Shown here: positions 2-63,781 of the stretch, in pieces
How the letters are laid out: each line of letters opens with the position of its first letter
Position numbering within the stretch: the first letter of the stretch is position 1
Assembly: GCF_046105845.1 (NCBI RefSeq)
Contig: NZ_CP151004.1
DNA from: Escherichia coli
GTDB lineage: Bacteria > Pseudomonadota > Gammaproteobacteria > Enterobacterales > Enterobacteriaceae
Direction: 5' to 3' (one strand)
DNA: 64,000 bases
Program-made: the position numbers and the translations under genes
The notes under the pieces: model-generated
Told to the model about the DNA's origin: nothing
Seen by the model: the letters and a program-made list of their open reading frames with translations, nothing else
Databases searched by the model: none

Positions 2-1009
2 GCTATTTTCGGCGGGAAAAGACGAGTAAGAATTTCAAGTCAAAGCCTTAAACGTGCGATGCGTAAAAGTGATTATTACGCACAAAATATTGGTGAATCC
101 AGTCTCAGAACAATTCATCTTGCACAATTACGTGATGTTCTTCGGCAAAAACTTGGTGAACGTTTTGACCAAAAAATCATCGATAAGACATTAGCGCTGC
201 TCTCCGGTAAATTAGTTGATGAAGCCGAAAAGATTTCTGCCGATGCGGTTACTCCATGGGTTGTGGGAGAAATAGCCTGGTTCTGTGAGCAGGTTGCAAA
301 AGCAGAGGCTGATAATCTGGATGATAAAAAGCTGCTCAAAGTTCTTAAGGAAGATATTGCCGCCATACGTGTGAATTTACAGCAGGGTGTTGATATTGCG
401 CTTAGTGGAAGAATGGCAACCAGCGGCATGATGAGTGAGTTGGGAAAAGTTGATGGTGCAATGTCCATTGCGCATGCGATCACTACTCATCAGGTTGATT
501 CTGATATTGACTGGTTCACCGCTGTAGATGATTTACAGGAACAAGGTTCTGCACATCTGGGAACTCAGGAATTTTCATCGGGTGTTTTTTATCGTTATGC
601 CAACATTAACCTCGCTCAACTTCAGGAAAATTTAGGTGGAGCCTCCAGGGAGCAGGCTCTGGAAATTGCAACCCATGTTGTTCATATGCTGGCAACAGAG
701 GTCCCTGGAGCAAAACAGCGTACTTATGCCGCTTTTAACCCTGCGGATATGGTAATGGTTAATTTCTCCGATATGCCACTTTCTATGGCAAATGCTTTTG
801 AAAAAGCGGTTAAAGCGAAAGATGGCTTTTTGCAACCGTCTATACAGGCGTTTAATCAATATTGGGATCGCGTTGCCAATGGATATGGTCTGAACGGAGC
901 AGCTGCGCAATTCAGCTTATCTGATGTAGACCCAATTACTGCTCAAGTTAAACAAATGCCTACTTTAGAACAGTTAAAATCCTGGGTTCGTAATAATGGC
1001 GAGGCGTGA
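2..1009 (+). CDS. casC: Cascade subunit CasC (Cas7e), 5' end cut by window edge
   Basis: Reading frame is open from nt 2 to the stop at 1009; the 316-aa track ORF is the C-terminal part. Followed directly by casD, casE, cas1, cas2 and a type I-E array. Confidence 0.85.
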
Positions 1010-1011
1010 AC

Positions 1012-1686
1012 ATGAGATCTTATTTGATCTTGCGGCTTGCTGGGCCAATGCAAGCCTGGGGGCAGCCGACCTTTGAAGGAACGCGACCTACCAGAAGATT
1101 TCCGACCCGAAGCGGGTTATTAGGGCTACTCGGGGCTTGTCTTGGGATCCAACGTGATGATACTTCTTCATTACAGGCGTTATCAGAGAGTGTGCAATTT
1201 GCAGTGCGCTGCGATGAACTCATTCTTGACGATCGTCGTGTGTCTGTAACGGGGTTGCGTGATTACCATACAGTCCTTGGAGCGCGAGAAGATTACCGTG
1301 GTTTGAAAAGTCATGAAACGATTCAAACATGGCGCGAATATTTATGTGATGCCTCCTTTACCGTCGCTCTCTGGTTAACACCCCATGCAACGATGGTTAT
1401 CTCAGAACTTGAAAAAGCAGTATTAAAGCCTCGGTATACACCCTACCTGGGGCGAAGAAGTTGCCCACTAACACACCCGCTTTTTTTGGGGACATGTCAG
1501 GCATCGGATCCTCAGAAGGCGCTATTAAATTATGAGCCCGTTGGCGGCGATATTTATAGTGAGGAATCAGTTACAGGGCATCATTTAAAATTTACGGCGC
1601 GCGACGAACCGATGATCACCTTACCTCGACAATTTGCTTCCCGAGAATGGTATGTGATTAAAGGAGGTATGGATGTATCTCAGTAA
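1012..1686 (+). CDS. casD: Cascade subunit CasD (Cas5e)
   Basis: Track ORF 1006..1686; ATG at 1012 gives MRSYLILRLAGPMQAWG..., recognised as E. coli CasD; 3' end overlaps casE by 14 nt. Confidence 0.9.
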   Translation: MRSYLILRLAGPMQAWGQPTFEGTRPTRRFPTRSGLLGLLGACLGIQRDDTSSLQALSESVQFAVRCDELILDDRRVSVTGLRDYHTVLGAREDYRGLKSHETIQTWREYLCDASFTVALWLTPHATMVISELEKAVLKPRYTPYLGRRSCPLTHPLFLGTCQASDPQKALLNYEPVGGDIYSEESVTGHHLKFTARDEPMITLPRQFASREWYVIKGGMDVSQ

Positions 1687-2272
1687 AGTCATCATTGCCA
1701 GGGCCTGGAGCAGGGATCTTTACCAACTTCACCAGGGATTATGGCATTTATTTCCAAACAGACCGGATGCTGCTCGTGATTTTCTTTTTCATGTTGAGAA
1801 GCGAAACACACCAGAAGGCTGTCATGTTTTATTGCAGTCAGCGCAAATACCTGTTTCAACTGCCGTTGCGACAGTCATTAAAACTAAACAGGTTGAATTT
1901 CAACTTCAGGTTGGTGTTCCACTCTATTTTCGGCTTCGGGCAAATCCGATCAAAACTATTCTCGACAATCAAAAGCGCCTGGACAGTAAAGGGAATATTA
2001 AACGCTGTCGGGTTCCGTTAATAAAAGAAGCAGAACAAATCGCGTGGTTGCAACGTAAATTGGGCAATGCGGCGCGCGTTGAAGATGTGCATCCCATATC
2101 GGAACGGCCACAGTATTTTTCTGGTGATGGTAAAAGTGGAAAGATCCAAACGGTTTGCTTTGAAGGGGTGATCACCATCAACGACGCGCCAGTGTTAATA
2201 GATCTTGTACAGCAAGGTATTGGGCCAGCTAAATCGATGGGATGTGGCTTGCTATCTTTGGCTCCACTGTGA
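1673..2272 (+). CDS. casE: CRISPR repeat endoribonuclease CasE (Cas6e)
   Basis: 199-aa ORF MYLSKVIIARAWSRDLYQLHQGLWHLF..., recognised as Cas6e; position between casD and cas1. Confidence 0.92.
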   Translation: MYLSKVIIARAWSRDLYQLHQGLWHLFPNRPDAARDFLFHVEKRNTPEGCHVLLQSAQIPVSTAVATVIKTKQVEFQLQVGVPLYFRLRANPIKTILDNQKRLDSKGNIKRCRVPLIKEAEQIAWLQRKLGNAARVEDVHPISERPQYFSGDGKSGKIQTVCFEGVITINDAPVLIDLVQQGIGPAKSMGCGLLSLAPL

Positions 2273-2287
2273 TTGAGGTGTAATAAA

Positions 2288-3491
<1,204 letters not shown>

Positions 3492-3596: not shown

Positions 3597-5089
3597 GAGT
3601 TCCCCGCGCCAGCGGGGATAAACCGTCCGATCCGAAAAAACGGGTAGTCGCCTACGAGAGTTCCCCGCGCCAGCGGGGATAAACCGCCCAGTGGCGAAGG
3701 GCAACGTAAGCATAAAACGAGTTCCCCGCGCCAGCGGGGATAAACCGGGGTAACACCGTGGCAGCAAGTCGATCCGCTGGAGTTCCCCGCGCCAGCGGGG
3801 ATAAACCTGATGCGCGCCGACTTGAATCACTGCGCATGGCGAGTTCCCCGCGCCAGCGGGGATAAACCGATGGACCGTGCCGCTTTTCGCCACCTGACGC
3901 CGAGTTCCCCGCGCCAGCGGGGATAAACCGTGGCTCCGGTCGGGGCCCGCCGCTTGCGGTGGGAGTTCCCCGCGCCAGCGGGGATAAACCGGTGCGTGAA
4001 TTATCTATCCAGGCAAAAGTAACGAGTTCCCCGCGCCAGCGGGGATAAACCGCATATTTTTCAGGATATCTATAAATGGGCGGGGAGTTCCCCGCGCCAG
4101 CGGGGATAAACCGCTCATCAAAATAATCGGCATTGTCAGAAATCCGAGTTCCCCGCGCCAGCGGGGATAAACCGTGCACTGGCTGACTACGCCGCAGCAC
4201 ATAAATGAGTTCCCCGCGCCAGCGGGGATAAACCGATAATTGATGCGATCTGGTCCACTACAGTGGCGAGTTCCCCGCGCCAGCGGGGATAAACCGTAGT
4301 TGCTGTTTAGGCTGTGTTGTGGTTACCAGAGTTCCCCGCGCCAGCGGGGATAAACCGACCTGCTCGCGATGCGTCTGCCGCTGGAACCCGAGTTCCCCGC
4401 GCCAGCGGGGATAAACCGTTGCGCGATCCATCGCTCAGCTTTGATCATGAGAGTTCCCCGCGCCAGCGGGGATAAACCGCGCAGCGCCGACGAACTGGAC
4501 GGCGCTATAAAGAGTTCCCCGCGCCAGCGGGGATAAACCGATGTGGCAGAAATTGATGGAGCGGATGTGCGAGAGTTCCCCGCGCCAGCGGGGATAAACC
4601 GATTTAGATACGGCACACAGGAATGCGCTGGATGAGTTCCCCGCGCCAGCGGGGATAAACCGCGGCTGGCTGTAATAATGCACGGCAGTGTGACGAGTTC
4701 CCCGCGCCAGCGGGGATAAACCGTGAATAATAAGGCGCTGACGGGCGATATTACGGAGTTCCCCGCGCCAGCGGGGATAAACCGGAACAACCTGAACGGA
4801 TGCCACCTTTTCACCTGAGTTCCCCGCGCCAGCGGGGATAAACCAACCGTCAGCATAGACCCATCTAGTCAGATTCTGTGTTCCCCGCGCCAGCGGGGAT
4901 AAACCGGCCCATTCCCCCCATACCGGCGGCAAGTTTAAGTGTTCCCCGCGCCAGCGGGGATAAACCGATTCCGTCAAATTTATCACTCAACGCCAGTTCG
5001 TGTTCCCCGCGCCAGCGGGGATAAACCGGGCGCACTGGATGCGATGATGGATATCACTTAGAATTCCCCGCCCCTGCGGTAGAACTCGC
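3597..5089 (+). CRISPR. Type I-E CRISPR array: 24 full 29-bp repeats, one degenerate terminal repeat, 24 spacers of 32 bp
   Basis: Repeat GAGTTCCCCGCGCCAGCGGGGATAAACCG recurs with an exact 61-bp period from 3597 to 5000. The last three full repeats begin GTG instead of GAG, and repeats 4 and 21 differ in their last base. Degenerate repeat GAATTCCCCGCCCCTGCGGTAGAACTCG at 5061..5089. Confidence 0.97.
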
Positions 5090-5109
5090 AGCTCTCATTT
5101 TCAACCCCA

Positions 5110-6147
5110 TCAAGACGCCTTCGCCAGCTCCTTCACCAGAGGTAGCATTATCCGCATAACATCACGGCAGCGACGTTCTATTCTTCCTGGAAGTGCCTTA
5201 TCAATATGTTGTTGATTATCCAGTCTTACGTCATGCCAGCTATTTCCCGCAGGGAATGCAGCTGTTTTTGCGCGTTGCTGATAACCATCCTTATTCCCAA
5301 GATTCCAATTTGTTGCTTCTACCGAAAGTACGGCAATACCGGCTTTGTCGAAAACTTCGGCGTCATTACAACAGCCAGTACCCTTCGGATAATTTTTATT
5401 CAAACCCGGATTGGTCGTTGCGGCAATTCCATGACTACGCGCAATTGCCAGTGCCCTGTCGCGCGTTAATTTCCTTACTGCTTCAGGGGTTTTTACACCA
5501 CTATTGAAATACAATTTATCGCCAACAATTAAGTTATCGAGATTAATCACCAGCAGCGTATTTTTCTTTTCGGTGTCACTCATCCGCTTGAGTAAATTCT
5601 CAGCGCCTAATTTCCCTTCCTCTTCACCGCTGGTCGCCACAAATCGAATACCATACTCGGTAGGCGTATTTTTCAGGCGTTCTGCCAGTTCCAGCATAAC
5701 ACCTAAACCTGCGGCGTTATCATCTATTCCTTGTAACGTCAGCCCGCCGAGATTGGCATCGGCGTCAGCATCGCTCAGCGGAGCGTAAGTATCCAGATGC
5801 GCCATAATGATGATCTGCTGCGGCGCTTTGCCTTCATGAGCGGCAATCACCGTACTTCCCGTCACGTTATGCCAGCTCTTGCGATTATCGCGGGCGGTAT
5901 AAATATACCGACTATTAAATGTCCGAATATCACTGCGATAACCCATTTGCTGAAACTGCTGGCGAATATAATCGGCAGATAACATTTCTGCAGGAGTTCC
6001 GGTCATGCGTCCCGGAAAGAAAGTAGCAATATGTCGTGCCTGGGTATTAGCAAAATCGCCAGGTTTAGGTGACGAGGCGTGTACGGGGAGAATAAAGCAT
6101 ACGCCGAGCGCCAGGGCAGCGGTACGGTGGCGCAATGCGGAAAACAT
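5110..6147 (-). CDS. iap: Alkaline phosphatase isozyme conversion aminopeptidase (M28 family)
   Basis: 345-aa ORF with signal-peptide-like N-terminus, recognised as Iap; the array's distal end abuts its stop, the classic iap-CRISPR arrangement. Confidence 0.9.
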   Translation of the reverse strand: MFSALRHRTAALALGVCFILPVHASSPKPGDFANTQARHIATFFPGRMTGTPAEMLSADYIRQQFQQMGYRSDIRTFNSRYIYTARDNRKSWHNVTGSTVIAAHEGKAPQQIIIMAHLDTYAPLSDADADANLGGLTLQGIDDNAAGLGVMLELAERLKNTPTEYGIRFVATSGEEEGKLGAENLLKRMSDTEKKNTLLVINLDNLIVGDKLYFNSGVKTPEAVRKLTRDRALAIARSHGIAATTNPGLNKNYPKGTGCCNDAEVFDKAGIAVLSVEATNWNLGNKDGYQQRAKTAAFPAGNSWHDVRLDNQQHIDKALPGRIERRCRDVMRIMLPLVKELAKAS

Positions 6148-6398
6148 AGTGAGTCCTTAAATACCATGCAAATTTTTTTACCGCCATAGTATGAAACTGC
6201 CGCTGCGCTAAAACAATTTCAAATCTTCCTAAACGCCCGAAATCCGGTGCCTTAAGCACTTTTTGATATTAGCTTTGCCAAATCGTTATTCCGTTAAGGA
6301 ACTACTCATTCTAATTGGTAATTTCATTCGTTCTCTTACGCTCCCTATAGTCGAAACATCTGATGGCAAGAAAATAGCGGTATTGCAAAGGAACGGTT

Positions 6399-7307
6399 AT
6401 GGATCAAAAACGACTTACTCACCTGCGGCAACTGGAGGCGGAAAGCATCCACATTATTCGCGAGGTGGCGGCAGAATTCTCAAATCCGGTGATGCTCTAC
6501 TCTATCGGTAAAGATTCCAGCGTCATGCTGCATCTGGCGCGCAAGGCGTTTTATCCAGGTACGCTGCCTTTCCCGTTGCTGCATGTCGATACCGGCTGGA
6601 AATTCCGCGAGATGTATGAGTTCCGCGATCGTACGGCTAAAGCCTACGGCTGCGAGCTGCTGGTGCATAAAAACCCGGAAGGCGTGGCGATGGGGATTAA
6701 TCCATTCGTACACGGCAGCGCGAAACATACCGATATTATGAAAACTGAAGGCCTGAAACAGGCGCTGAACAAATACGGTTTTGATGCCGCCTTCGGTGGT
6801 GCGCGCCGTGACGAAGAAAAATCCCGCGCTAAAGAGCGAATTTACTCTTTCCGTGACCGCTTCCATCGCTGGGATCCGAAAAATCAGCGCCCGGAGCTGT
6901 GGCACAACTACAACGGGCAAATTAACAAAGGCGAAAGCATTCGCGTCTTCCCGCTCTCTAACTGGACCGAGCAGGATATCTGGCAATACATCTGGCTGGA
7001 AAATATCGACATTGTTCCGCTGTATCTCGCTGCAGAACGTCCGGTTCTGGAACGCGACGGTATGTTGATGATGATTGATGACAACCGTATCGACCTGCAA
7101 CCGGGCGAAGTGATTAAAAAACGGATGGTGCGTTTCCGTACGCTGGGCTGCTGGCCGCTGACCGGTGCGGTGGAGTCAAATGCACAAACACTGCCGGAGA
7201 TCATCGAAGAGATGCTGGTTTCCACCACCAGTGAACGTCAGGGCCGCGTGATTGACCGCGACCAGGCGGGGTCTATGGAGCTGAAAAAACGTCAGGGGTA
7301 TTTTTAA
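6399..7307 (+). CDS. cysD: Sulfate adenylyltransferase subunit 2
   Basis: 302-aa [30 protein letters not shown]..., recognised as CysD (PAPS reductase-like fold); start of cysDNC. Confidence 0.95.
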
Positions 7308-7308
7308 G

Positions 7309-8736
7309 ATGAACACCGCACTTGCACAACAAATCGCCAATGAAGGCGGCGTCGAAGCCTGGATGATTGCGCAACAACATAAAAGCCTGCTGCGTTTTCT
7401 GACCTGTGGTAGCGTCGATGACGGCAAAAGTACTCTGATTGGTCGTCTGCTGCATGATACCCGCCAAATCTACGAAGATCAGCTCTCATCGCTGCATAAC
7501 GACAGTAAGCGTCACGGCACTCAGGGCGAAAAGCTGGATCTGGCACTGCTGGTGGACGGCCTGCAAGCTGAGCGCGAACAGGGCATCACCATTGACGTGG
7601 CTTACCGTTATTTCTCTACCGAGAAGCGCAAATTTATTATCGCCGACACCCCTGGGCACGAGCAGTACACCCGCAATATGGCGACCGGCGCATCGACATG
7701 CGAACTGGCGATCTTACTGATCGACGCCCGTAAAGGCGTGCTCGATCAAACCCGTCGTCACAGTTTTATCTCCACACTGTTGGGGATCAAACATCTGGTC
7801 GTGGCGATCAACAAAATGGATCTGGTGGGTTACAGTGAAGAGACGTTCACCCGTATTCGCGAAGATTATCTGACGTTTGCCGGGCAGCTGCCGGGTAATC
7901 TGGATATCCGCTTTGTGCCGCTCTCTGCACTGGAAGGCGACAACGTGGCTTCGCAAAGTGAAAGTATGCCGTGGTACAGCGGTCCGACACTGCTCGAAGT
8001 GCTGGAAACCGTGGAGATCCAGCGAGTGGTGGATGCCCAGCCAATGCGCTTCCCGGTGCAGTACGTTAATCGCCCGAATCTCGATTTTCGTGGCTACGCC
8101 GGAACGCTGGCATCCGGTCGAGTGGAAGTCGGGCAACGTGTCAAAGTGCTGCCCTCTGGTGTGGAATCAAACGTCGCGCGGATCGTGACTTTTGATGGCG
8201 ATCGCGAAGAAGCCTTTGCCGGAGAAGCGATCACCCTGGTGCTGACGGATGAGATCGACATCAGCCGTGGCGATCTGCTGCTGGCGGCAGACGAATCGTT
8301 ACCGGCTGTGCAGAGCGCGTCGGTGGATGTGGTATGGATGGCGGAACAGCCGCTTTCCCCAGGCCAGAGTTACGACATCAAAATTGCCGGTAAGAAGACG
8401 CGTGCTCGTGTTGATGGCATTCGTTATCAGGTTGATATTAATAACCTTACCCAACGCGAAGTTGAAAACCTGCCGCTGAACGGCATCGGCCTGGTGGATC
8501 TCACTTTTGACGAGCCACTGGTGTTAGATCGTTATCAGCAAAATCCGGTTACCGGTGGGCTGATTTTTATCGATCGCCTGAGCAATGTGACCGTGGGTGC
8601 CGGTATGGTGCACGAGCCAGTTAGCCAGGCAACTGCTGCGCCATCTGAATTCAGTGCATTCGAACTGGAATTGAATGCCCTGGTTCGCCGCCACTTTCCA
8701 CACTGGGGCGCGCGCGATTTACTGGGGGATAAATAA
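7309..8736 (+). CDS. cysN: Sulfate adenylyltransferase subunit 1 (GTPase)
   Basis: 475-aa ORF with GTPase motifs ([21 protein letters not shown]); 1-nt gap after cysD. Confidence 0.95.
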
Positions 8737-8738
8737 TA

Positions 8739-9344
8739 ATGGCGCTGCATGACGAAAACGTCGTCTGGCATAGCCATCCAGTCACTGTACAACAACGCGA
8801 GCTACACCACGGTCATCGCGGTGTAGTGCTGTGGTTTACCGGCCTCTCCGGGTCCGGTAAATCAACGGTCGCCGGGGCGCTGGAGGAGGCGTTACATAAA
8901 CTCGGCGTCAGTACGTATCTGCTGGATGGCGATAATGTTCGCCACGGATTATGCAGCGATCTCGGTTTTAGCGATGCCGATCGTAAAGAAAATATCCGTC
9001 GCGTCGGTGAAGTGGCGAATTTGATGGTTGAAGCCGGACTGGTGGTGCTGACCGCATTCATCTCGCCACACCGCGCCGAACGCCAGATGGTTCGCGAACG
9101 CGTAGGAGAAGGGCGCTTTATCGAAGTGTTTGTCGATACACCGCTGGCGATTTGCGAAGCCCGCGATCCAAAAGGCTTATATAAGAAAGCGCGTGCCGGT
9201 GAACTGCGTAACTTTACGGGAATAGATTCTGTTTACGAAGCGCCTGAATCGGCAGAAATTCATCTCAATGGTGAACAATTAGTAACAAATTTGGTACAGC
9301 AATTATTAGATCTGTTGAGACAGAACGATATTATCAGATCCTGA
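8739..9344 (+). CDS. cysC: Adenylylsulfate (APS) kinase
   Basis: 201-aa ORF with P-loop GLSGSGKST, recognised as CysC. Confidence 0.95.
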
Positions 9345-23698: not shown

Positions 23699-24709
23699 TT
23701 AGCATATACGCGGAAGCGGTTCGGCGTGCGGTAGATCGAGGGTTCGTTTCACGCCATACAGACCGGCAAGACGAACACCTTTACGTTCCACCACTTCACC
23801 AATCAGCGCCGCGTCTTTTCCCAGTGGATGGGAATGTAACGCTGCCAGCACTTGCTCTGCCGCGTTGCGTTCAACGGCGATCACCAGTTTGCCTTCGTTG
23901 GCAAAGTTAAGGGCGTCCAGTCCCAGCAGTTCGCAAACGCCGCGCACAGCAGGTTTAACCGGCAGTGCCGCTTCTGAAAGTTCAATACCGCAACCGCAGG
24001 CTGCCGCGAACTCATGAACTACCGCGTTCACACCACCACGGGTGGCATCACGCAGCGCTTTCACGCCGGGAATGTCACGCAGCGTCTGAATAAGCGGCGT
24101 TAGTACCGCGCAGTCGCTGACCAGTTCGCCGTCCAGCCCCAGTTGCTCACGCAGGTTAAGGATAGTCGCCCCGTGGTCCCCGAGTGTACCGCTAACCAGC
24201 AATACATCGCCTGCGGTTAGCGTCTGTGCGCCCCAGTGAATATTCGCCGGAATTGCGCCCATGCCAGCGGTGTTGATAAACAGTTTATCTGCCGCGCCGC
24301 GCTGCACCACTTTAGTATCGCCAGTGACGATGGCAATGCCTGCCGCGCGGGCGGTTTCTGCCATGCTGGTCACTACGGCTTTCAGTGTCTCCATCGGCAA
24401 TCCTTCTTCGAGGATAAAGCCACAGGAGAGATAGCGCGGAATAGCGCCACTGACCGCAACGTCATTCGCGGTGCCGCAAATCGCCAGCTTGCCGATATTA
24501 CCGCCAGGAAAGAACAGCGGGTCAATGACGTAACTGTCGGTGGAGAACGCCAGACGGTCGCCTTCCGCTACCAGCTGCGCCAGATCAAGACGTGCCTGAT
24601 CTTCCTGCTCTGCCAGCCACGGGTTGGCAAAGGCTTCCATAAACAGGCTGTTGATTAATTGCTGCATCGCCTGGCCGCCGCTACCGTGGGCGAGTTGGAT
24701 ATTATTCAC
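23699..24709 (-). CDS. hypE: Hydrogenase maturation protein HypE
   Basis: 336-aa ORF MNNIQLAHGSGGQAMQQLINSLF…, recognised as HypE. Confidence 0.93.
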   Translation of the reverse strand: MNNIQLAHGSGGQAMQQLINSLFMEAFANPWLAEQEDQARLDLAQLVAEGDRLAFSTDSYVIDPLFFPGGNIGKLAICGTANDVAVSGAIPRYLSCGFILEEGLPMETLKAVVTSMAETARAAGIAIVTGDTKVVQRGAADKLFINTAGMGAIPANIHWGAQTLTAGDVLLVSGTLGDHGATILNLREQLGLDGELVSDCAVLTPLIQTLRDIPGVKALRDATRGGVNAVVHEFAAACGCGIELSEAALPVKPAVRGVCELLGLDALNFANEGKLVIAVERNAAEQVLAALHSHPLGKDAALIGEVVERKGVRLAGLYGVKRTLDLPHAEPLPRIC

Positions 24710-25827
24710 GCTTCACTCTCCTGCTGACGATACTGATACCACGCGGCGCACGCTCCTTCGGAGGAAACCATCAGCGCACCAAACGCGGTTTGAGGATTAC
24801 AGGTGTTACCAAACAGCGGGCATTGATGCGGCTTACATTTGCCCGTTAATACTTCGCCACAACGTGCGCGCGGGTCATCGCAGACCTGCTGCGGTGCCGG
24901 GCGGAAATGCGCTTCGGCATCGAATCGTTGATAATCCGGCGTCAGGTGTACACCAGAAGATTCAATCACGCCTAAGCCGCGCCATTCGCTGTCGCCGTTG
25001 ACACAGAACACATCGGCAATCGCCTGTTGCGCCAGCAGGTTACCGGCATCCGGCACCACCCGACGATACTGATTCTCTACCTTGCTGTGGGCCGCTATTT
25101 TCTGCTCCACCAGCATGACCACGCCTTGCAGTAGATCAAGCGGTTCGAAACCAGCGACCACCAGCGGACGATGAAAATCGCTGGCGATAAAATTATAGGC
25201 ATCAGTGCCGATAACCATACTAACGTGACCGGGCGCAAGAAACGCGTCGATACCGTTATCCGGCTCTTCCAGCAAACTGCGCAGCGTCGGGATAAGCGTA
25301 ATATGCTGGCAGAAGAAGTAAAAATTCTGCACATCACGCGCTTTCGCCTGTTGCAGAGTGATGGCCGTCGTCGGCATGGTGGTTTCAAAACCTAAGCCGA
25401 AGAACACCACTTTGCGGGTTGGATTCTCCTGCGCCAGTTTCAACGCATCCATCGGCGAGTAAACGATGCGCACATCGGCACCGCGTGCTTTTGCCTGCAA
25501 CAGCGATCCCTGTTTCCCCGGCACGCGCATGGCGTCGCCAAAGGTACAGAAGATGACTTCCGGATGGCTGGCAATCTCCACGCAGGTGTCGATTCTACCC
25601 ATCGGCAGTACACACACCGGGCAACCGGGACCGTGGATAAACTCAACGTTTTCCGGCAGCAACTGGTCGAGGCCGAATTTAAAAATGGCGTGGGTATGAC
25701 CACCGCACACTTCCATAATCCGCAGAGGGCGTTCGGCGGTGTAAGAGAGATGTGAAGCACGTTCGCGCAGATGCTCAATTAACTGCATCACCTGTTCCGG
25801 CGCGCGATATTCATCAACAAAACGCAT
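24706..25827 (-). CDS. hypD: Hydrogenase maturation protein HypD
   Basis: 373-aa [23 protein letters not shown]…, recognised as HypD. Confidence 0.93.
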   Translation of the reverse strand: MRFVDEYRAPEQVMQLIEHLRERASHLSYTAERPLRIMEVCGGHTHAIFKFGLDQLLPENVEFIHGPGCPVCVLPMGRIDTCVEIASHPEVIFCTFGDAMRVPGKQGSLLQAKARGADVRIVYSPMDALKLAQENPTRKVVFFGLGFETTMPTTAITLQQAKARDVQNFYFFCQHITLIPTLRSLLEEPDNGIDAFLAPGHVSMVIGTDAYNFIASDFHRPLVVAGFEPLDLLQGVVMLVEQKIAAHSKVENQYRRVVPDAGNLLAQQAIADVFCVNGDSEWRGLGVIESSGVHLTPDYQRFDAEAHFRPAPQQVCDDPRARCGEVLTGKCKPHQCPLFGNTCNPQTAFGALMVSSEGACAAWYQYRQQESEA

Positions 25828-26099
25828 TATTTTTCCTCGCCATACAACAGCGCACCGACATCCGGCTCAACGTCAAACATGTTTTGTAAGGCGTCGAGAG
25901 TGTCGCGCGCTTCGGCTTCATTAATTACGCTCATGGCAAAGCCAACGTGAACCAGTACCCACTGGCCCACGCGCGGCTGACCGTTTTCATCGCAGCTGCC
26001 GACTAACGTTAAATCGACATCGCGCTGAATGCCGCAGACGTCGACTTTCGCCTGGTTGCCGTCAATGGTGCGGATCTGGCCGGGAACGCCTATGCACAT
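25827..26099 (-). CDS. hypC: Hydrogenase maturation chaperone HypC
   Basis: Internal ATG of track ORF gives [30 protein letters not shown]… (90 aa), the conserved MC(I/L)G(V/I)P N-terminus. Confidence 0.9.
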
Positions 26100-26962
26100 C
26101 GCTGTGTCTCCAGCCAGTTCAGCCACTGGTCCATCCCTTCGCCGCTGGTGGCGGAAATAAGGATGATTTCAATTTCTGGATTGACTTCGCGGGCGCAGGC
26201 GATGCACTTCTCAACGTCAAAGTTGAGATACGGCAACAGGTCAACTTTGTTGAGCAGCATCAGCGAGGCGGCGGCAAACATATGCGGATATTTCAGCGGT
26301 TTGTCTTCACCTTCGGTAACGGAAAGCACCGCCACTTTGTGTTTTTCACCGAGATCGAAGCTGGCCGGGCATACAAGGTTGCCAACGTTTTCGATAAACA
26401 GAATACCGTTATCGTCCAGTGGCAGACGCGGTGCGGCGTCGGCAATCATCTGTGCGTCAAGATGGCAGCCTTTACCGGTGTTCACCTGAATCGCTGGTGT
26501 GCCGGTAGCGCGAATGCGTGCGGCATCGTTCACGGTTTGCTGGTCGCCTTCAATAACCGCGCACGGAACGCTGTCTTTCAGGCGCATTAAGGTTTCCGTC
26601 AGCAGGGTGGTTTTACCGGAACCAGGGCTGGAAACCAGGTTGAGCACCAGTTGCTTGCGGGCAGCAAAGCGCGCGCGGTTGCGTTCAGCCAGACGGTTAT
26701 TTTTGTCCAGCACGTCAATTTCGACTTCCAGCATCCGACGCTGGCTCATGCCCGGCGCGTGAGTGCCCGCTTCGCCATGACCGTAATGCAGGTCGCCTTC
26801 TTCAGTCTGGCTGGGGGTAAATTCAGGCGCTTTAATGCCGGTGATTTTCATCTTCGGGCGTGCCGCCGGGGCAAATGGCGCGCTACGAAACGCGGAATGA
26901 GGGTTATGTTCATCACCCTCAATATAGAGGTTGCCTTCACCGCAACCGCATGTTGTACACAT
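26090..26962 (-). CDS. hypB: Hydrogenase nickel-insertion GTPase HypB
   Basis: 290-aa [13 protein letters not shown]… with His-rich stretch and GTPase motifs (GSGKTTLL). Confidence 0.93.
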
Positions 26963-26965
26963 CGC

Positions 26966-27316
26966 TCACTCCTGGTCTATTTCTATCCGCCGAATCTGTA
27001 AACCGTCGTCTGCCACAATCTGTAGCATGTCACCATGACACTGTGGACAGCGGCGGACGCGCTGGGTCAGTAGCGTCACATACTGTTGGCATGTTTCACA
27101 CCAGCATTCGGCCTCTTGTTCTTCGAGGTGCAGTTTACAACCTTCCGCCACGCTGCCGCGGCAAACCAGATCAAAACAAAAGGCAAGAGAGCTGGTTTCG
27201 ACACAAGAAAATGCGCCAATTTTGAGCCAGACCCCAGTTACGCGTTTTGCGCCGTGTTTTGCGGCCTGCTGTTCGATCAATTCCAGTGCCCGTTGGCAGA
27301 GGGTTATTTCGTGCAT
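26966..27316 (-). CDS. hypA: Hydrogenase nickel-insertion protein HypA
   Basis: Internal ATG of track ORF gives MHEITLCQRALELIEQQA… (116 aa) with zinc-binding CxxC…CxxC. Confidence 0.92.
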   Translation of the reverse strand: MHEITLCQRALELIEQQAAKHGAKRVTGVWLKIGAFSCVETSSLAFCFDLVCRGSVAEGCKLHLEEQEAECWCETCQQYVTLLTQRVRRCPQCHGDMLQIVADDGLQIRRIEIDQE

Positions 27317-27347
27317 ATCGCCTCCCATTAACTATTGCCAGCTACAA

Positions 27348-27362
27348 GCAATAATTGTGCCA
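27348..27362 (-). promoter_or_regulatory. Candidate sigma54 promoter of the hyp operon
   Basis: Minus strand reads TGGCACAATTATTGC, with GG and GC at the -24/-12 spacing; about 32 nt upstream of the hypA start. Coordinates approximate. Confidence 0.45.
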
Positions 27363-27475
27363 GTGTTGATTATCCCTGCAGTGAATAATGTCGATGATGT
27401 CGAAATGACACGTCGACACGGCGACGAAATTCATCTTTAGCTTAAAAATCGCTTTAATAACAATGAATTAAAAGT

Positions 27476-27491
27476 TGGCACAGAAAATGCT
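27476..27491 (+). promoter_or_regulatory. Candidate sigma54 promoter of the hyc operon
   Basis: TGGCACAGAAAATGCT with GG/GC at the -24/-12 spacing; about 37 nt upstream of the hycA ATG. The FhlA-activated hyc operon is known to be sigma54-dependent. Confidence 0.55.
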
Positions 27492-27527
27492 TAAAGCTGG
27501 CATCTCTGTTAAACGGGTAACCTGACA

Positions 27528-27989
27528 ATGACTATTTGGGAAATAAGCGAGAAAGCCGATTACATCGCACAGCGGCATCGTCGCCTACAGGACCAGTGGC
27601 ACATCTACTGCAATTCGCTGGTTCAGGGGATCACGTTATCGAAAGCGCGCCTGCATCACGCCATGAGCTGCGCGCCGGACAAAGAACTCTGTTTCGTCCT
27701 TTTTGAACATTTTCGTATTTACGTCACCCTGGCGGATGGCTTTAACAGCCACACCATCGAGTATTACGTCGAAACAAAAGATGGTGAAGACAAACAGCGG
27801 ATTGCGCAGGCGCAACTGAGCATTGACGGCATGATTGATGGCAAGGTCAACATCCGCGATCGCGAACAGGTTCTGGAACACTATCTCGAAAAAATCGCTG
27901 GCGTTTACGACAGCTTATACACCGCCATTGAAAACAATGTGCCGGTGAATTTAAGCCAACTGGTAAAGGGACAAAGCCCGGCAGCATGA
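27528..27989 (+). CDS. hycA: Formate hydrogenlyase regulatory protein HycA
   Basis: 153-aa ORF MTIWEISEKADYIAQRHRRLQDQWHIY…, recognised as HycA. Confidence 0.92.
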   Translation: MTIWEISEKADYIAQRHRRLQDQWHIYCNSLVQGITLSKARLHHAMSCAPDKELCFVLFEHFRIYVTLADGFNSHTIEYYVETKDGEDKQRIAQAQLSIDGMIDGKVNIRDREQVLEHYLEKIAGVYDSLYTAIENNVPVNLSQLVKGQSPAA

Positions 27990-28049
27990 GCTGAGGCTTT
28001 GCCCGTTTTGCAGGCGTTACGCCTGTTTGGGGATGGGCGTGTCGATGAG

Positions 28050-28094
28050 TGTCGAAAATGACATTTTATCGGCATGTTTTCGTCAAAAATGACA
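28050..28094. promoter_or_regulatory. Two copies of a TCGAAAATGACA-like motif in the hycA-hycB spacer (candidate FhlA upstream activating sequence)
   Basis: TGTCGAAAATGACA (about 28050..28063) and CGTCAAAAATGACA (about 28081..28094); a related GTCGAAATGACACGTCGAC motif sits in the hyp-hyc intergenic region near 27390..27410. Confidence 0.35.
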
Positions 28095-28113
28095 ATCACC
28101 TGAGGAATGCCTG

Positions 28114-28725
28114 GTGAATCGTTTTGTAATTGCTGACTCCACGCTCTGTATCGGCTGCCACACCTGTGAGGCCGCCTGTTCAGAGACGCATCGCCAGCAC
28201 GGCCTGCAATCAATGCCGCGCCTGCGAGTGATGCTCAATGAAAAAGAATCTGCGCCGCAGCTCTGTCACCACTGTGAAGATGCGCCCTGTGCGGTGGTTT
28301 GCCCGGTTAACGCCATCACCCGCGTTGATGGGGCCGTGCAGTTAAATGAAAGTCTGTGCGTAAGCTGCAAACTGTGCGGCATCGCCTGCCCGTTTGGCGC
28401 AATTGAATTTTCCGGCAGCCGTCCGCTGGATATTCCGGCAAATGCCAATACCCCGAAAGCGCCACCGGCACCGCCTGCTCCGGCGCGTGTCAGCACATTG
28501 CTTGACTGGGTGCCAGGTATTCGCGCGATCGCCGTCAAATGTGACCTTTGTAGTTTTGATGAACAAGGTCCGGCCTGCGTGCGGATGTGCCCGACTAAAG
28601 CCCTGCATCTGGTGGATAACACCGATATCGCCCGCGTCAGCAAACGTAAGCGTGAGCTGACTTTTAACACGGACTTTGGCGATCTCACCTTGTTTCAGCA
28701 GGCTCAAAGTGGAGAGGCTAAATGA
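28114..28725 (+). CDS. hycB: Formate hydrogenlyase 4Fe-4S ferredoxin subunit HycB
   Basis: 203-aa ORF with four CxxCxxCxxxCP clusters; GTG start per ORF track. Confidence 0.92.
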   Translation: MNRFVIADSTLCIGCHTCEAACSETHRQHGLQSMPRLRVMLNEKESAPQLCHHCEDAPCAVVCPVNAITRVDGAVQLNESLCVSCKLCGIACPFGAIEFSGSRPLDIPANANTPKAPPAPPAPARVSTLLDWVPGIRAIAVKCDLCSFDEQGPACVRMCPTKALHLVDNTDIARVSKRKRELTFNTDFGDLTLFQQAQSGEAK

Positions 28726-30548
28726 GCGCAATTTCCCTGATCAATAGCGGCGTGGCGTGGTTTGTCGCCGCCGCTGTTCTGGCATTTCTCTTTTCTTTTC
28801 AAAAGGCGCTAAGCGGCTGGATAGCCGGAATTGGCGGCGCGGTTGGTAGCCTGTATACGGCAGCCGCGGGCTTTACTGTGCTGACTGGCGCGGTTGGCGT
28901 GAGCGGTGCGCTGTCGCTGGTAAACTACGATGTGCAAATCTCTCCGCTTAACGCGATTTGGCTGATTACGCTCGGTCTGTGCGGTCTGTTTGTCAGCCTC
29001 TACAACATTGACTGGCATCGCCACGCGCAGGTGAAGTGCAACGGCTTGCAGATCAATATGTTGATGGCTGCCGCCGTCTGCGCCGTCATCGCCAGCAACC
29101 TCGGCATGTTCGTGGTAATGGCTGAAATCATGGCCCTGTGCGCGGTGTTCCTTACCAGCAACAGCAAAGAGGGCAAACTGTGGTTTGCGCTGGGGCGTCT
29201 TGGCACTCTGCTGCTGGCGATTGCCTGCTGGCTGCTGTGGCAGCGTTACGGCACGCTGGATCTGCGCCTGCTGGATATGCGTATGCAACAGCTGCCGCTC
29301 GGTTCCGATATCTGGCTGCTCGGTGTGATTGGCTTTGGCCTGCTGGCCGGGATTATTCCGCTGCACGGCTGGGTGCCGCAGGCACATGCGAACGCCTCTG
29401 CGCCAGCTGCCGCGTTGTTTTCTACGGTAGTCATGAAAATTGGCCTGCTGGGCATTTTAACCCTGTCGCTGCTGGGCGGTAATGCACCGCTGTGGTGGGG
29501 GATCGCGCTGCTGGTGCTCGGCATGATCACCGCGTTCGTCGGCGGTCTGTATGCGCTGATGGAGCACAACATCCAGCGCCTGCTGGCTTACCACACCCTG
29601 GAAAATATCGGCATCATCCTGCTGGGGCTGGGCGCTGGCGTAACGGGTATCGCGCTCGAACAACCGGCGCTGATTGCTCTTGGCCTGGTTGGTGGTCTGT
29701 ATCATCTGCTTAACCATAGCCTGTTCAAAAGCGTACTGTTCCTCGGGGCGGGGAGCGTCTGGTTCCGTACCGGTCATCGCGATATCGAAAAACTCGGTGG
29801 TATAGGCAAGAAAATGCCGGTTATCTCCATCGCCATGTTGGTCGGGCTGATGGCAATGGCTGCGCTGCCGCCGCTGAACGGTTTTGCCGGGGAATGGGTT
29901 ATCTATCAATCCTTCTTCAAATTGAGCAATAGTGGCGCGTTTGTTGCCCGTCTGCTGGGGCCACTGCTTGCTGTGGGTCTGGCAATTACCGGTGCGCTGG
30001 CGGTGATGTGTATGGCGAAAGTCTATGGCGTCACGTTCCTCGGTGCGCCGCGTACCAAAGAAGCCGAAAACGCCACCTGTGCGCCGCTCCTGATGAGCGT
30101 AAGCGTAGTGGCACTGGCGATTTGCTGCGTAATTGGCGGTGTTGCTGCGCCGTGGCTGCTGCCGATGCTCTCTGCTGCTGTACCTCTGCCGCTGGAGCCT
30201 GCTAACACCACCGTTTCTCAACCCATGATCACGTTGCTGCTGATTGCCTGCCCGCTGCTGCCATTCATCATTATGGCGATTTGCAAAGGCGACCGTTTGC
30301 CGTCGCGTTCCCGCGGCGCGGCCTGGGTGTGCGGCTACGACCACGAAAAATCAATGGTGATTACCGCTCACGGTTTTGCCATGCCGGTGAAACAGGCGTT
30401 TGCGCCAGTGCTGAAACTGCGCAAATGGCTGAATCCGGTGTCGCTGGTGCCGGGCTGGCAGTGCGAAGGCAGTGCGTTGCTGTTCCGCCGGATGGCGCTG
30501 GTTGAACTGGCGGTGCTGGTGGTGATTATTGTTTCACGAGGAGCCTGA
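28722..30548 (+). CDS. hycC: Formate hydrogenlyase membrane subunit HycC
   Basis: 608-aa polytopic membrane ORF, NuoL/ND5-like; position in the hyc operon. Confidence 0.92.
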   Translation: MSAISLINSGVAWFVAAAVLAFLFSFQKALSGWIAGIGGAVGSLYTAAAGFTVLTGAVGVSGALSLVNYDVQISPLNAIWLITLGLCGLFVSLYNIDWHRHAQVKCNGLQINMLMAAAVCAVIASNLGMFVVMAEIMALCAVFLTSNSKEGKLWFALGRLGTLLLAIACWLLWQRYGTLDLRLLDMRMQQLPLGSDIWLLGVIGFGLLAGIIPLHGWVPQAHANASAPAAALFSTVVMKIGLLGILTLSLLGGNAPLWWGIALLVLGMITAFVGGLYALMEHNIQRLLAYHTLENIGIILLGLGAGVTGIALEQPALIALGLVGGLYHLLNHSLFKSVLFLGAGSVWFRTGHRDIEKLGGIGKKMPVISIAMLVGLMAMAALPPLNGFAGEWVIYQSFFKLSNSGAFVARLLGPLLAVGLAITGALAVMCMAKVYGVTFLGAPRTKEAENATCAPLLMSVSVVALAICCVIGGVAAPWLLPMLSAAVPLPLEPANTTVSQPMITLLLIACPLLPFIIMAICKGDRLPSRSRGAAWVCGYDHEKSMVITAHGFAMPVKQAFAPVLKLRKWLNPVSLVPGWQCEGSALLFRRMALVELAVLVVIIVSRGA

Positions 30549-60071: not shown

Positions 60072-60164
60072 GGTGAGGTGGCCGAGAGGCTGAAGGCGCT
60101 CCCCTGCTAAGGGAGTATGCGGTCAAAAGCTGCATCCGGGGTTCGAATCCCCGCCTCACCGCCA
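60072..60164 (+). tRNA. serV: tRNA-Ser (anticodon GCU)
   Basis: 93-nt sequence GGTGAGGTGGCCGAGAGGCTGAAGGCGCTCCCCTGCTAAGGGAG…CGCCTCACCGCCA with long variable arm, GCT anticodon and encoded CCA. Confidence 0.95.
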
Positions 60165-60167
60165 TTT

Positions 60168-60244
60168 GCATCCGTAGCTCAGCTGGATAGAGTACTCGGC
60201 TACGAACCGAGCGGTCGGAGGTTCGAATCCTCCCGGATGCACCA
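60168..60244 (+). tRNA. argV: tRNA-Arg (anticodon ACG), copy 1
   Basis: 77-nt GCATCCGTAGCTCAGCTGGATAGAGTACTCGGCTACGAACCGAGCGGTCGGAGGTTCGAATCCTCCCGGATGCACCA; 3 nt after serV. Symbol assigned by position. Confidence 0.95.
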
Positions 60245-60378
60245 TATTCTACATATTTTCAGCGATGAAGGTATGGAAGAGGTGGCGGTAATAACCGCAG
60301 GCACTAGGGAGGATAACGTTGCTTTAGCAACGGCCCGAAGGGCGAGCCGCAAGGCGAGTAATCCTCCCGGATGCACCA
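60245..60378 (+). repeat. 134-bp element A ending in a duplicate of the tRNA-Arg 3' end
   Basis: Begins TATTCTACATATTTTCAGCGATGAAGG…, contains a small hairpin CGTTGC-TTTA-GCAACG, and ends …AATCCTCCCGGATGCACCA, identical to the last about 19 nt of the preceding tRNA-Arg. Confidence 0.7.
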
Positions 60379-60442
60379 TCTCTTACTTGATACGGCTTTA
60401 GTAGCGGTATCAAAAAATCTGCAGTAAAGTAAGTTTCCCGAT

Positions 60443-60519
60443 GCATCCGTAGCTCAGCTGGATAGAGTACTCGGCTACGAACCGAGCGGTCGGAGGTTCG
60501 AATCCTCCCGGATGCACCA
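60443..60519 (+). tRNA. argY: tRNA-Arg (anticodon ACG), copy 2
   Basis: Identical 77-nt sequence; symbol assigned by position. Confidence 0.95.
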
Positions 60520-60582
60520 TCTCTTACTTGATATGGCTTTAGTAGCGATATCAATATCAGCAGTAAAATAAATTTTCCCGAT

Positions 60583-60659
60583 GCATCCGTAGCTCAGCTG
60601 GATAGAGTACTCGGCTACGAACCGAGCGGTCGGAGGTTCGAATCCTCCCGGATGCACCA
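60583..60659 (+). tRNA. argZ: tRNA-Arg (anticodon ACG), copy 3
   Basis: Identical 77-nt sequence; 63-bp spacer from copy 2. Confidence 0.95.
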
Positions 60660-60722
60660 TCTCTTACTTGATATGGCTTTAGTAGCGATATCAATATCAG
60701 CAGTAAAATAAGTTTTCCCGAT

Positions 60723-60799
60723 GCATCCGTAGCTCAGCTGGATAGAGTACTCGGCTACGAACCGAGCGGTCGGAGGTTCGAATCCTCCCGGATGCACCA
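60723..60799 (+). tRNA. argQ: tRNA-Arg (anticodon ACG), copy 4
   Basis: Identical 77-nt sequence; 63-bp spacer from copy 3. Confidence 0.95.
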
Positions 60800-63708: not shown

Positions 63709-63781
63709 AAAAAGGCCACTCGTGAGTGGCCAAAATTTCATCTCTGAATTCAGGGATGATGATAACAAATGCGCGTCTTTC
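63709..63781 (-). ncRNA. micA: Small regulatory RNA MicA (SraD)
   Basis: Minus strand reads GAAAGACGCGCATTTGTTATCATCATCCCTGAATTCAGAGATGAAATTTTGGCCACTCACGAGTGGCCTTTTT, recognised as MicA with its terminator hairpin; lies between gshA and luxS as in E. coli. Confidence 0.85.

Follow-up and report, generated by a model that had tools for sequence, protein, structure and literature searches.

In type I-E CRISPR-Cas systems, the repeat ends in a base that is the final one of the PAM (Swarts 2012, PMC3338789), and a new unit arises by insertion of a 33-bp prespacer with duplication of just 28 bp of the repeat (PMC3338789, PMC3737337, PMC4027179). A G-first unit with a C-ending partner has been recognized as the signature of one prespacer inserted both ways (Shmakov 2014, PMC4027179). 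Position 2 of the repeat is also known to vary, being the W of the consensus GWGTTCC..., and its two forms correspond, on the opposite strand, to the 'CRISPR-A' and 'CRISPR-T' duplicons, which are linked to leader-A and leader-T (PMC3737337). In E. coli, one combination of cas genes and leader is named cas-E2/EK with leader L2/leader-T (PMC3903273, PMC3737337), and cas-E2 and its L2 leader, along with one or more CRISPR units, have been proposed to have been inserted together into a pre-existing array (PMC3903273).

Here, we describe an array of this kind in a 64,000-nucleotide stretch of E. coli DNA (RefSeq assembly GCF_046105845.1, contig NZ_CP151004.1), referred to below as the window, and we report its anatomy, the distribution of its repeat variants, its sharing of spacers with other strains, a reverse-complement twin of one spacer (S4) and the AAG PAMs of four others. 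An original prediction, made from the sequence, had interpreted the variants as the mark of older, leader-distal units decaying behind leader-proximal acquisition. We favor, with a probability of about 0.87, a reading in which the variants are instead the products of three known processes: bases at position 29 that are carried by the spacers, blocks of GAG and GTG repeats that follow the leader/cas module, and an ancient anchor. Every element of this reading has been described before (PMC3338789, PMC4027179, PMC3737337, PMC3903273), and it is therefore already known.

Results

The array is flanked by cas2 and iap, with cysD and cysN further downstream and an AT-rich leader on the cas side (NCBIfam). 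The genes cas7e (its 5' end cut by the window start), cas5e, cas6e, cas1e and cas2e, identified by NCBIfam matches and forming a K-12-type (cas-E2/EK) I-E set, occupy positions 59-3491 on the plus strand and are followed by the CRISPR2.1 leader of type T/L2 (3492-3596, plus strand). On the other side, beside the array, lies the iap aminopeptidase gene (5110-6147, minus strand; NF007568, E=2.8e-212). The leader is identical to that of K-12 over 105/105 nt and shares 75% identity with the leader of E1 strains. Cas6e (199 aa) is 98.5% identical to the K-12 protein and 27% identical to the E1 variant, the corresponding values being 99.0% and 84% for Cas1 and 95.7% and 87% for Cas2. The locus is thus E. 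coli CRISPR-I/CRISPR2.1, chromosomal, with K-12-type cas genes and leader, a module that we found in 1221 of 5426 complete E. coli genomes.

The flanks of the array are mosaic: on the cas side the closest match is the WB61 group (99.5%), whereas on the iap side other strains are closest, which is consistent with recombination at the CRISPR locus. The segments at 5090-9000 and 24000-30000 reach at most 98.9-99.0% identity to any of the 5426 complete RefSeq E. coli genomes, so that the window comes from an E. coli-lineage strain outside this collection, unsampled or divergent and possibly Shigella or of a rare phylogroup. The iap gene, at 96.5-98.6%, varies to an unusual degree, the value for cysD being about 99.3%. 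Farther along the window, Rfam placed a five-tRNA cluster and the MicA sRNA (60072-60796 and 63710-63781). The content of tRNA cluster, MicA, cas, iap-cysDNC and hyc-hyp genes looks consistent with K-12-like synteny.

The type I-E array itself (3597-5089, plus strand) consists of 24 full repeats of 29 nt, 24 spacers and a degenerate terminal repeat, giving 25 repeats on a strict 61-nt period that starts at 3597. At this period, 24 repeats each lie within one mismatch of the CRISPR2.1 (CRISPR-I) repeat GWGTTCCCCGCGCCAGCGGGGATAAACCG, and 19 are exact copies of the consensus GAGTTCCCCGCGCCAGCGGGGATAAACCG, which we used as the reference. The variants are R4 (3780-3808), with T as its last base; R21 (4817-4845), with A as its last base; R22 (4878), R23 (4939) and R24 (5000), which have T at position 2 and so start with GTG but show no further difference; and R25 (5061-5089, GAATTCCCCGCCCCTGCGGTAGAACTCGC), which mismatches the consensus at 11 of its 29 positions. 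Repeat alignment bore out this inventory, as originally predicted, in every detail.

The three T variants coincide exactly with the distal three of the 24 repeats (chance 1/2024; 0.011 for any contiguous block), and the five variant full repeats, when pooled, skew distally (p=0.012, exact rank-sum test). Such pooling is unjustified, however, and the pooled test is inappropriate, because the position-29 variants (R4, R21) and the position-2 variants (R22-R24) are different phenomena and because R4 is near the leader. The two kinds of variant are accordingly treated separately below.

With respect to position 2, GTG rather than GAG is the majority form of this repeat. Among 1394 exact-core repeats from GTDB species representatives, covering about 50 species (Salmonella, Citrobacter, Klebsiella, Pectobacterium, Serratia, E. 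albertii and others), 1303 carried GTG and 86 carried GAG. The two forms fold alike into a 7-bp hairpin of -15.1 kcal/mol, with position 2 outside the stem. Where both occur in one array, they always do so in contiguous blocks across species and in either polarity, with A followed by T in Enterobacter sp. ENT03 and Entomohabitans and T followed by A in Pseudocitrobacter.

Within E. coli, we parsed 19 iap-side arrays including that of the window, out of the thousands that exist; 16 were K-12-type and three were E1. The first repeat was GAG in 16/16 K-12-type arrays and GTG in 3/3 E1 arrays. In K-12-type arrays, GTG repeats formed a contiguous distal block in eight and were absent from the other eight; a scatter of GTG repeats through related strains, which the original prediction had named as the pattern that would speak against an age polarity, occurred in 0/16. 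The window array has GAG in R1-R21, followed by a GTG ('CRISPR-A' type) block of R22, R23 and R24 with S22 and S23 (4878-5028, plus strand), which repeat alignment and spacer sharing identify as the remnant of an older array. Besides these three, there are four distal GTG repeats in each of DETEC-S792, JNE23-011 and JNE112863, three in TL012 and one in each of K-12, EC2 and EA2. GTG is the general form of the repeat and not a decayed one, and GAG is tied to the K-12-type leader/cas module.

Position-2 variants lie in blocks because positions 1-28 are copied from the first repeat, such that a change anywhere within those positions would pass to every later repeat. In the window, the 21 GAG repeats would descend from the GAG repeat of a K-12-type leader/cas module that would have been joined onto an older GTG array, of which R22-R24 would be the survivors; this order of events is one that we infer from the blocks as they now stand. 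A further variant, C13>T in the hairpin loop (T13), fills the whole leader-proximal block in strains 914033 and TL012 and represents a second example of a propagated first-repeat mutation.

The spacers of the old block have a history of their own. S22 (with one mismatch), S23 and S24 are common to JNE23-011 and JNE112863, and S23 and S24 are also shared with DETEC-S792. At the junction of R24 and S24 (5029), the window is without two or three units that those strains keep between S23 and S24. The missing units begin AGATTGG..., CTGTGCC... and GGTAAAAAC..., and the last of these also adjoins the anchor in E1-type arrays. These absences represent an internal deletion in the old part of the window array. 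The sharing of distal units with E1 arrays fits the module insertion proposed previously (PMC3903273).

The GAG/GTG boundary itself does not always fall at the same unit. S22 follows a GTG repeat in the window but a GAG repeat in the JNE strains, S23 follows a GAG repeat in DETEC-S792, and the AGATTGG... unit follows GAG in TL012 and GTG elsewhere. Each such shift of the boundary coincides with missing units. A deletion between repeats would keep the 5' end of the upstream repeat, including position 2, and could thereby move the boundary, relative to the spacers, in the distal direction only.

It is also conceivable that GAG originated within the array of this lineage, through a T>A mutation of the repeat that was then first, after S21 had been acquired, and spread by duplication without any exchange of cas genes or leader. 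Copying of the first repeat gives the same block pattern in either case, and independent A/T blocks of both polarities exist in other species, with the T13 variant as proof that such sweeps occur; moreover, GAG is found in the ygcE-queE arrays as well, whose leader is the same between cas variants (PMC3903273). An origin in place nevertheless sits poorly with the perfect association of GAG with the divergent K-12-type leader (75% identity) and cas variant (16/16 vs 0/3), with the presence of distal GTG units such as GGTAAAAAC... in E1 arrays, with the insertion of cas-E2, the L2 leader and a CRISPR unit inferred by others (PMC3903273) and with the mosaic flanks of the array. We consider it unlikely, although the arrival of GAG with a cas-E2 module and its origin in place are indistinguishable on these data. 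The strain N51, with a GAG anchor repeat beneath GTG repeats, requires an extra event under the explanation that we favor.

The N51 array (L006, NZ_CM165887.1, 2438-2832), which is of E1 type, has five GTG repeats and then GAG before the anchor spacer. The same polarity, T then A, is seen in Pseudocitrobacter vendiensis.

Of the 24 spacers, 21 had no occurrence at the iap locus of any of the 5426 complete E. coli genomes. Four spacers recur singly elsewhere, namely S15, S17, S18 and, in reverse complement, S4. S15 (4480-4511) is present in the iap-side array of EA2, S17 (4602-4633) in the ygcE-queE array of at least 50 genomes, and S18 (4663-4694; one mismatch) as the first spacer of the ygcE-queE array in O145. 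The recurrence of S15, S17 and S18 in arrays that are otherwise unrelated suggests that their protospacers were acquired independently more than once or that arrays have exchanged units.

Two related arrays contain repeated segments. That of WB61 (L102, 3981-4041) has a copy of the 3' end of the leader, with an N, after which the first three units are repeated; this is either an assembly artefact or a duplication of leader and array. In WWCOL-236 (L104, 3981-4102), one spacer is tandemly duplicated.

The variants at position 29 follow a different rule. Cas1-Cas2 inserts a 33-bp prespacer while copying solely positions 1-28 of the first repeat, so that the prespacer begins at 'position 29', where its base is normally the G of an AAG PAM. 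An insertion that is non-AAG or in reverse orientation then leaves a single non-G base, tied to its own spacer and absent from newer repeats. In the window, exact protospacers of S1, S6, S9 and S10 include the 'repeat' G and are preceded by AA, giving an AAG PAM in 4/4 cases. Whereas R4 and R21 end in T and A, the next newer repeats, R3 and R20, both end in G, which indicates that T and A were not propagated; the repeat ends CCT and CCA studied by Swarts et al. were likewise not propagated (PMC3338789). Among other strains, the unit A|GCGTAAGAAAAC... retains its A at array position 9 (WB61, EC488) and at array position 5 (23CRST026).

S1 (3626-3657) and S10 (4175-4206) match phage P1/P7, in parB and the gp23 region. 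S6 (3931-3962) and S9 (4114-4145) match large E. coli plasmids, S9 within a transglycosylase SLT-domain gene. The matching plasmid records number in the thousands. Since a plasmid BLAST search of the whole array was dominated by P1-type matches, it was rerun without S1, S6, S9 and S10, and S21 was then the sole matching spacer.

The same behavior is found beyond this locus. Among about 50 further species of Enterobacterales that share this repeat core, the base after the core was not G in 30 of 1392 repeats (2.2%), and such units showed no positional bias (mean relative position 0.44 vs 0.49, MWU p=0.38). Units ending in C made up 12/25 of the non-G units and 332/1261 of the G-first units in those species (Fisher p=0.018). 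The T of R4 and the A of R21 are therefore spacer-borne singletons without positional bias and not repeat mutations, and the original view of them as decayed repeats did not survive. The contrast between singletons at position 29 and blocks at position 2 serves as an internal control for the copying of positions 1-28.

The first of these singletons belongs to S4, a 33-nt unit (T+32, ending in C; 3808-3840, plus strand) that includes the terminal T of R4. Its sequence, T-GATGCGCGCCGACTTGAATCACTGCGCATGGC, is reverse-complementary at 33/33 positions to G-CCATGCGCAGTGATTCAAGTCGGCGCGCATCA, which is spacer 2 of the ygcE-queE array (CRISPR2.3) of strain NY1601. Given this twin, S4 is probably a prespacer that was inserted in reverse orientation. 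The more frequent C ending of non-G units than of G-first units in other species is consistent with such insertions. Searches for a protospacer of S4 returned none in phages, plasmids, IMG/VR (0 matches) or metagenomes (0 matches), and the AAG on its canonical side is for this reason inferred and not seen. A flipped S4 would imply a protospacer AAG-CCATGCGCAGTG... on the NY1601 strand, equivalent to ...CATGGC-TT in the orientation of the window.

The second singleton belongs to S21 (A+32; 4845-4877, plus strand), a 33-nt unit that includes the terminal A of R21 and matches SSU5/pHCM2-like phage-plasmids. Its last 29 nt match at 29/29 positions in PhiR41_1, five IMG/VR contigs and 14 plasmids of this kind. 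The six targets that were read (PhiR41_1 and the five IMG/VR contigs) have ATG|GCT where the array has A|ACC, placing the differences at position 29 and at the first and third positions of the spacer; the 14 plasmid alignments end at that boundary, before position 29. By our own calculation, three differences would all lie in the first 4 of 33 positions with a chance of about 7e-4 (4/5456). Neither a codon-degenerate search of IMG/VR nor a metagenome search with the 5' variant turned up a target carrying AACC, and a degenerate IMG/VR search for divergent homologues of the target returned just the same five contigs.

The first four bases of S21, AACC (window 4845-4849), duplicate the four bases with which the repeat ends. 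Shifted-ruler integration models for this AACC, worked through by hand, predict a trimmed repeat or an altered period, neither of which is present.

Most likely, the A of R21 would stem from a non-AAG acquisition from an unsampled variant of the target. Against an origin of this A in the protospacer, the six read targets carry G there, and the packing of the differences at the PAM-proximal end of S21 is unusual. The A and the following ACC could instead reflect a change on the array side, through aberrant integration or a later rewrite of the PAM-proximal seed. Such a change would accommodate the G|GCT of the six read targets opposite A|ACC in the array, with the other 29 nt identical and the 14 plasmid alignments ending at the boundary, as well as the clustering of three differences in four positions, the repetition of the last four repeat bases and the lack of an AACC target in IMG/VR and metagenomes. 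Those databases are incomplete, however, and target-side escape mutations, which cluster at the PAM and seed, could equally account for the pattern. CCA repeat ends with AAA or CGA PAMs are, in addition, documented as ordinary acquisitions (PMC3338789), and no mechanism is known for a length-neutral 4-nt replacement. We regard a change on the array side as quite unlikely. That A|ACC represents an undescribed length-neutral junction error, or a templated rewrite of the seed that would disarm the spacer against a resident phage-plasmid, seems highly doubtful. For R21, acquisition from a target variant with a non-AAG PAM is thus the reading that we retain.

The distal end of the array is formed by S24 (5029-5060, plus strand) and R25, the degenerate terminal ('anchor') repeat (5061-5089, plus strand). 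S24 is a species-wide anchor spacer, present with 0-2 mismatches in all 18 other iap-side arrays parsed, where it adjoins the terminal repeat in E1 and E2 types alike; a search of genome contigs with it gave 0 matches. In the alignment across strains, S24 and R25 have counterparts in each of the 12 comparison strains, R25 being identical at 29/29 positions to that of WB61, EC488, WWCOL-236 and 23CRST026 and differing by 1-4 positions from that of the remaining strains, which carry both cas variants (with a 1-nt indel in the K-12 type). R25 has a stem of 4 bp and a folding energy of -7.3 kcal/mol, against -15.1 for a full repeat. In the oldest full repeat, which is R24 in the window, mutations of the loop or stem (A12, T13, A19) are present in 10 of the 18 other strains sampled but absent from the window. 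S24 and R25 together are an ancient anchor common to nearly all E. coli, an old and fixed fossil, and the near-identity of R25 across strains means that it is not evidence of decay in the lineage of the window.

Discussion

The age structure of the array, in which acquisition is leader-proximal and distal units are older, is confirmed by the presence of S24 and the terminal repeat in every array and by the sharing of S22 and S23 with other strains. The mechanism attached to it by the original prediction is a separate matter. Age-dependent decay, in which old distal repeats under relaxed selection gather mutations that show as GTG, as a terminal A or T and as a degenerate R25, could draw on the distal skew of the pooled variants (p=0.012), on the loss of most of the stem from the terminal repeat and on the extra mutations at positions 12, 13 and 19 that the oldest full repeat bears in other strains. 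Decay would be expected to yield distal variants that are derived relative to outgroups and that impair the repeat; what we found instead is that GTG predominates across about 50 species, is also the outgroup form, lies outside the hairpin and folds identically. The three GTG repeats moreover share the same single difference and nothing else, R4 with its T lies near the leader, the position-29 variants are linked to spacers without positional bias, and the terminal repeat is identical or nearly so between strains, with no lineage-specific decay. Of the five variant full repeats, four are wrongly explained by decay, and as an account of the variants as a whole we judge it very improbable. The polarity of age is therefore real and its equation with decay is unsupported; similarly, the terminal repeat is degenerate, as predicted, but represents an old allele that all strains have kept nearly unchanged. 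Sequencing error as the source of the variants is out, as the same variants recur in independent genomes.

The three processes that we favor have practical consequences for CRISPR typing, for which the original prediction had recommended these variants. Position 29 should be counted with the spacer, and position 2 (A or T) does mark the leader/cas lineage that templated the repeat, but the anchor unit, being common to nearly all strains, carries no information. The array also serves as a natural illustration of rules established in the laboratory, namely the 28-bp duplicon, the PAM-derived base and flipped spacers, and its three retained GTG units help to reconstruct the join of the K-12-type module to the older array. 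Beyond correct annotation, the importance of these observations is small, the unusual 5' terminus of S21 being the only loose end.

How the locus relates to described systems can be stated for each process in turn. First, the variants at position 29 resemble those of Swarts 2012 (PMC3338789) in being singletons, like the CCT and CCA ends, that are not propagated, and in the G of AAG present in 4/4 exact protospacers; the difference is that the acquisitions here are natural and those there were made in the laboratory, and that the known targets of S21 are without the A. Second, S4 and its NY1601 twin share with the flipped spacers of Shmakov 2014 (PMC4027179) an exact self-complementary pair of 33-mers, with G at position 0 and C at +32. 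They differ in that the partners lie in separate strains and loci (iap-side vs ygcE-queE) of wild isolates and in that the protospacer of S4 was not found; the pair would be a natural case in which a single prespacer has become fixed both ways round among wild strains. Third, the anchor corresponds to the anchor tandem of Almendros 2014 (PMC3903273), the same degenerate repeat and spacer at the iap end whatever the cas variant, from which it shows no substantive difference, the window allele (…CTCGC) being common to the WB61 group.

Finally, the closest system overall is CRISPR-I/CRISPR2.1 of K-12 (Diez-Villasenor 2013, PMC3737337; Almendros 2014, PMC3903273). Both have the locus order cas2-array-iap-cysDNC, an identical leader, Cas6e, Cas1 and Cas2 proteins of 96-99% identity, GAG repeats near the leader, GTG in the oldest repeat or repeats, and the anchor spacer with its terminal repeat. 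The window differs from K-12 in keeping three GTG repeats where K-12 keeps one, in having an anchor repeat without the A12/T13 mutations of K-12, in its 24 spacers, 21 of which had no counterpart at the iap locus of the 5426 genomes, and in a chromosome that is at least 1% divergent at two loci.
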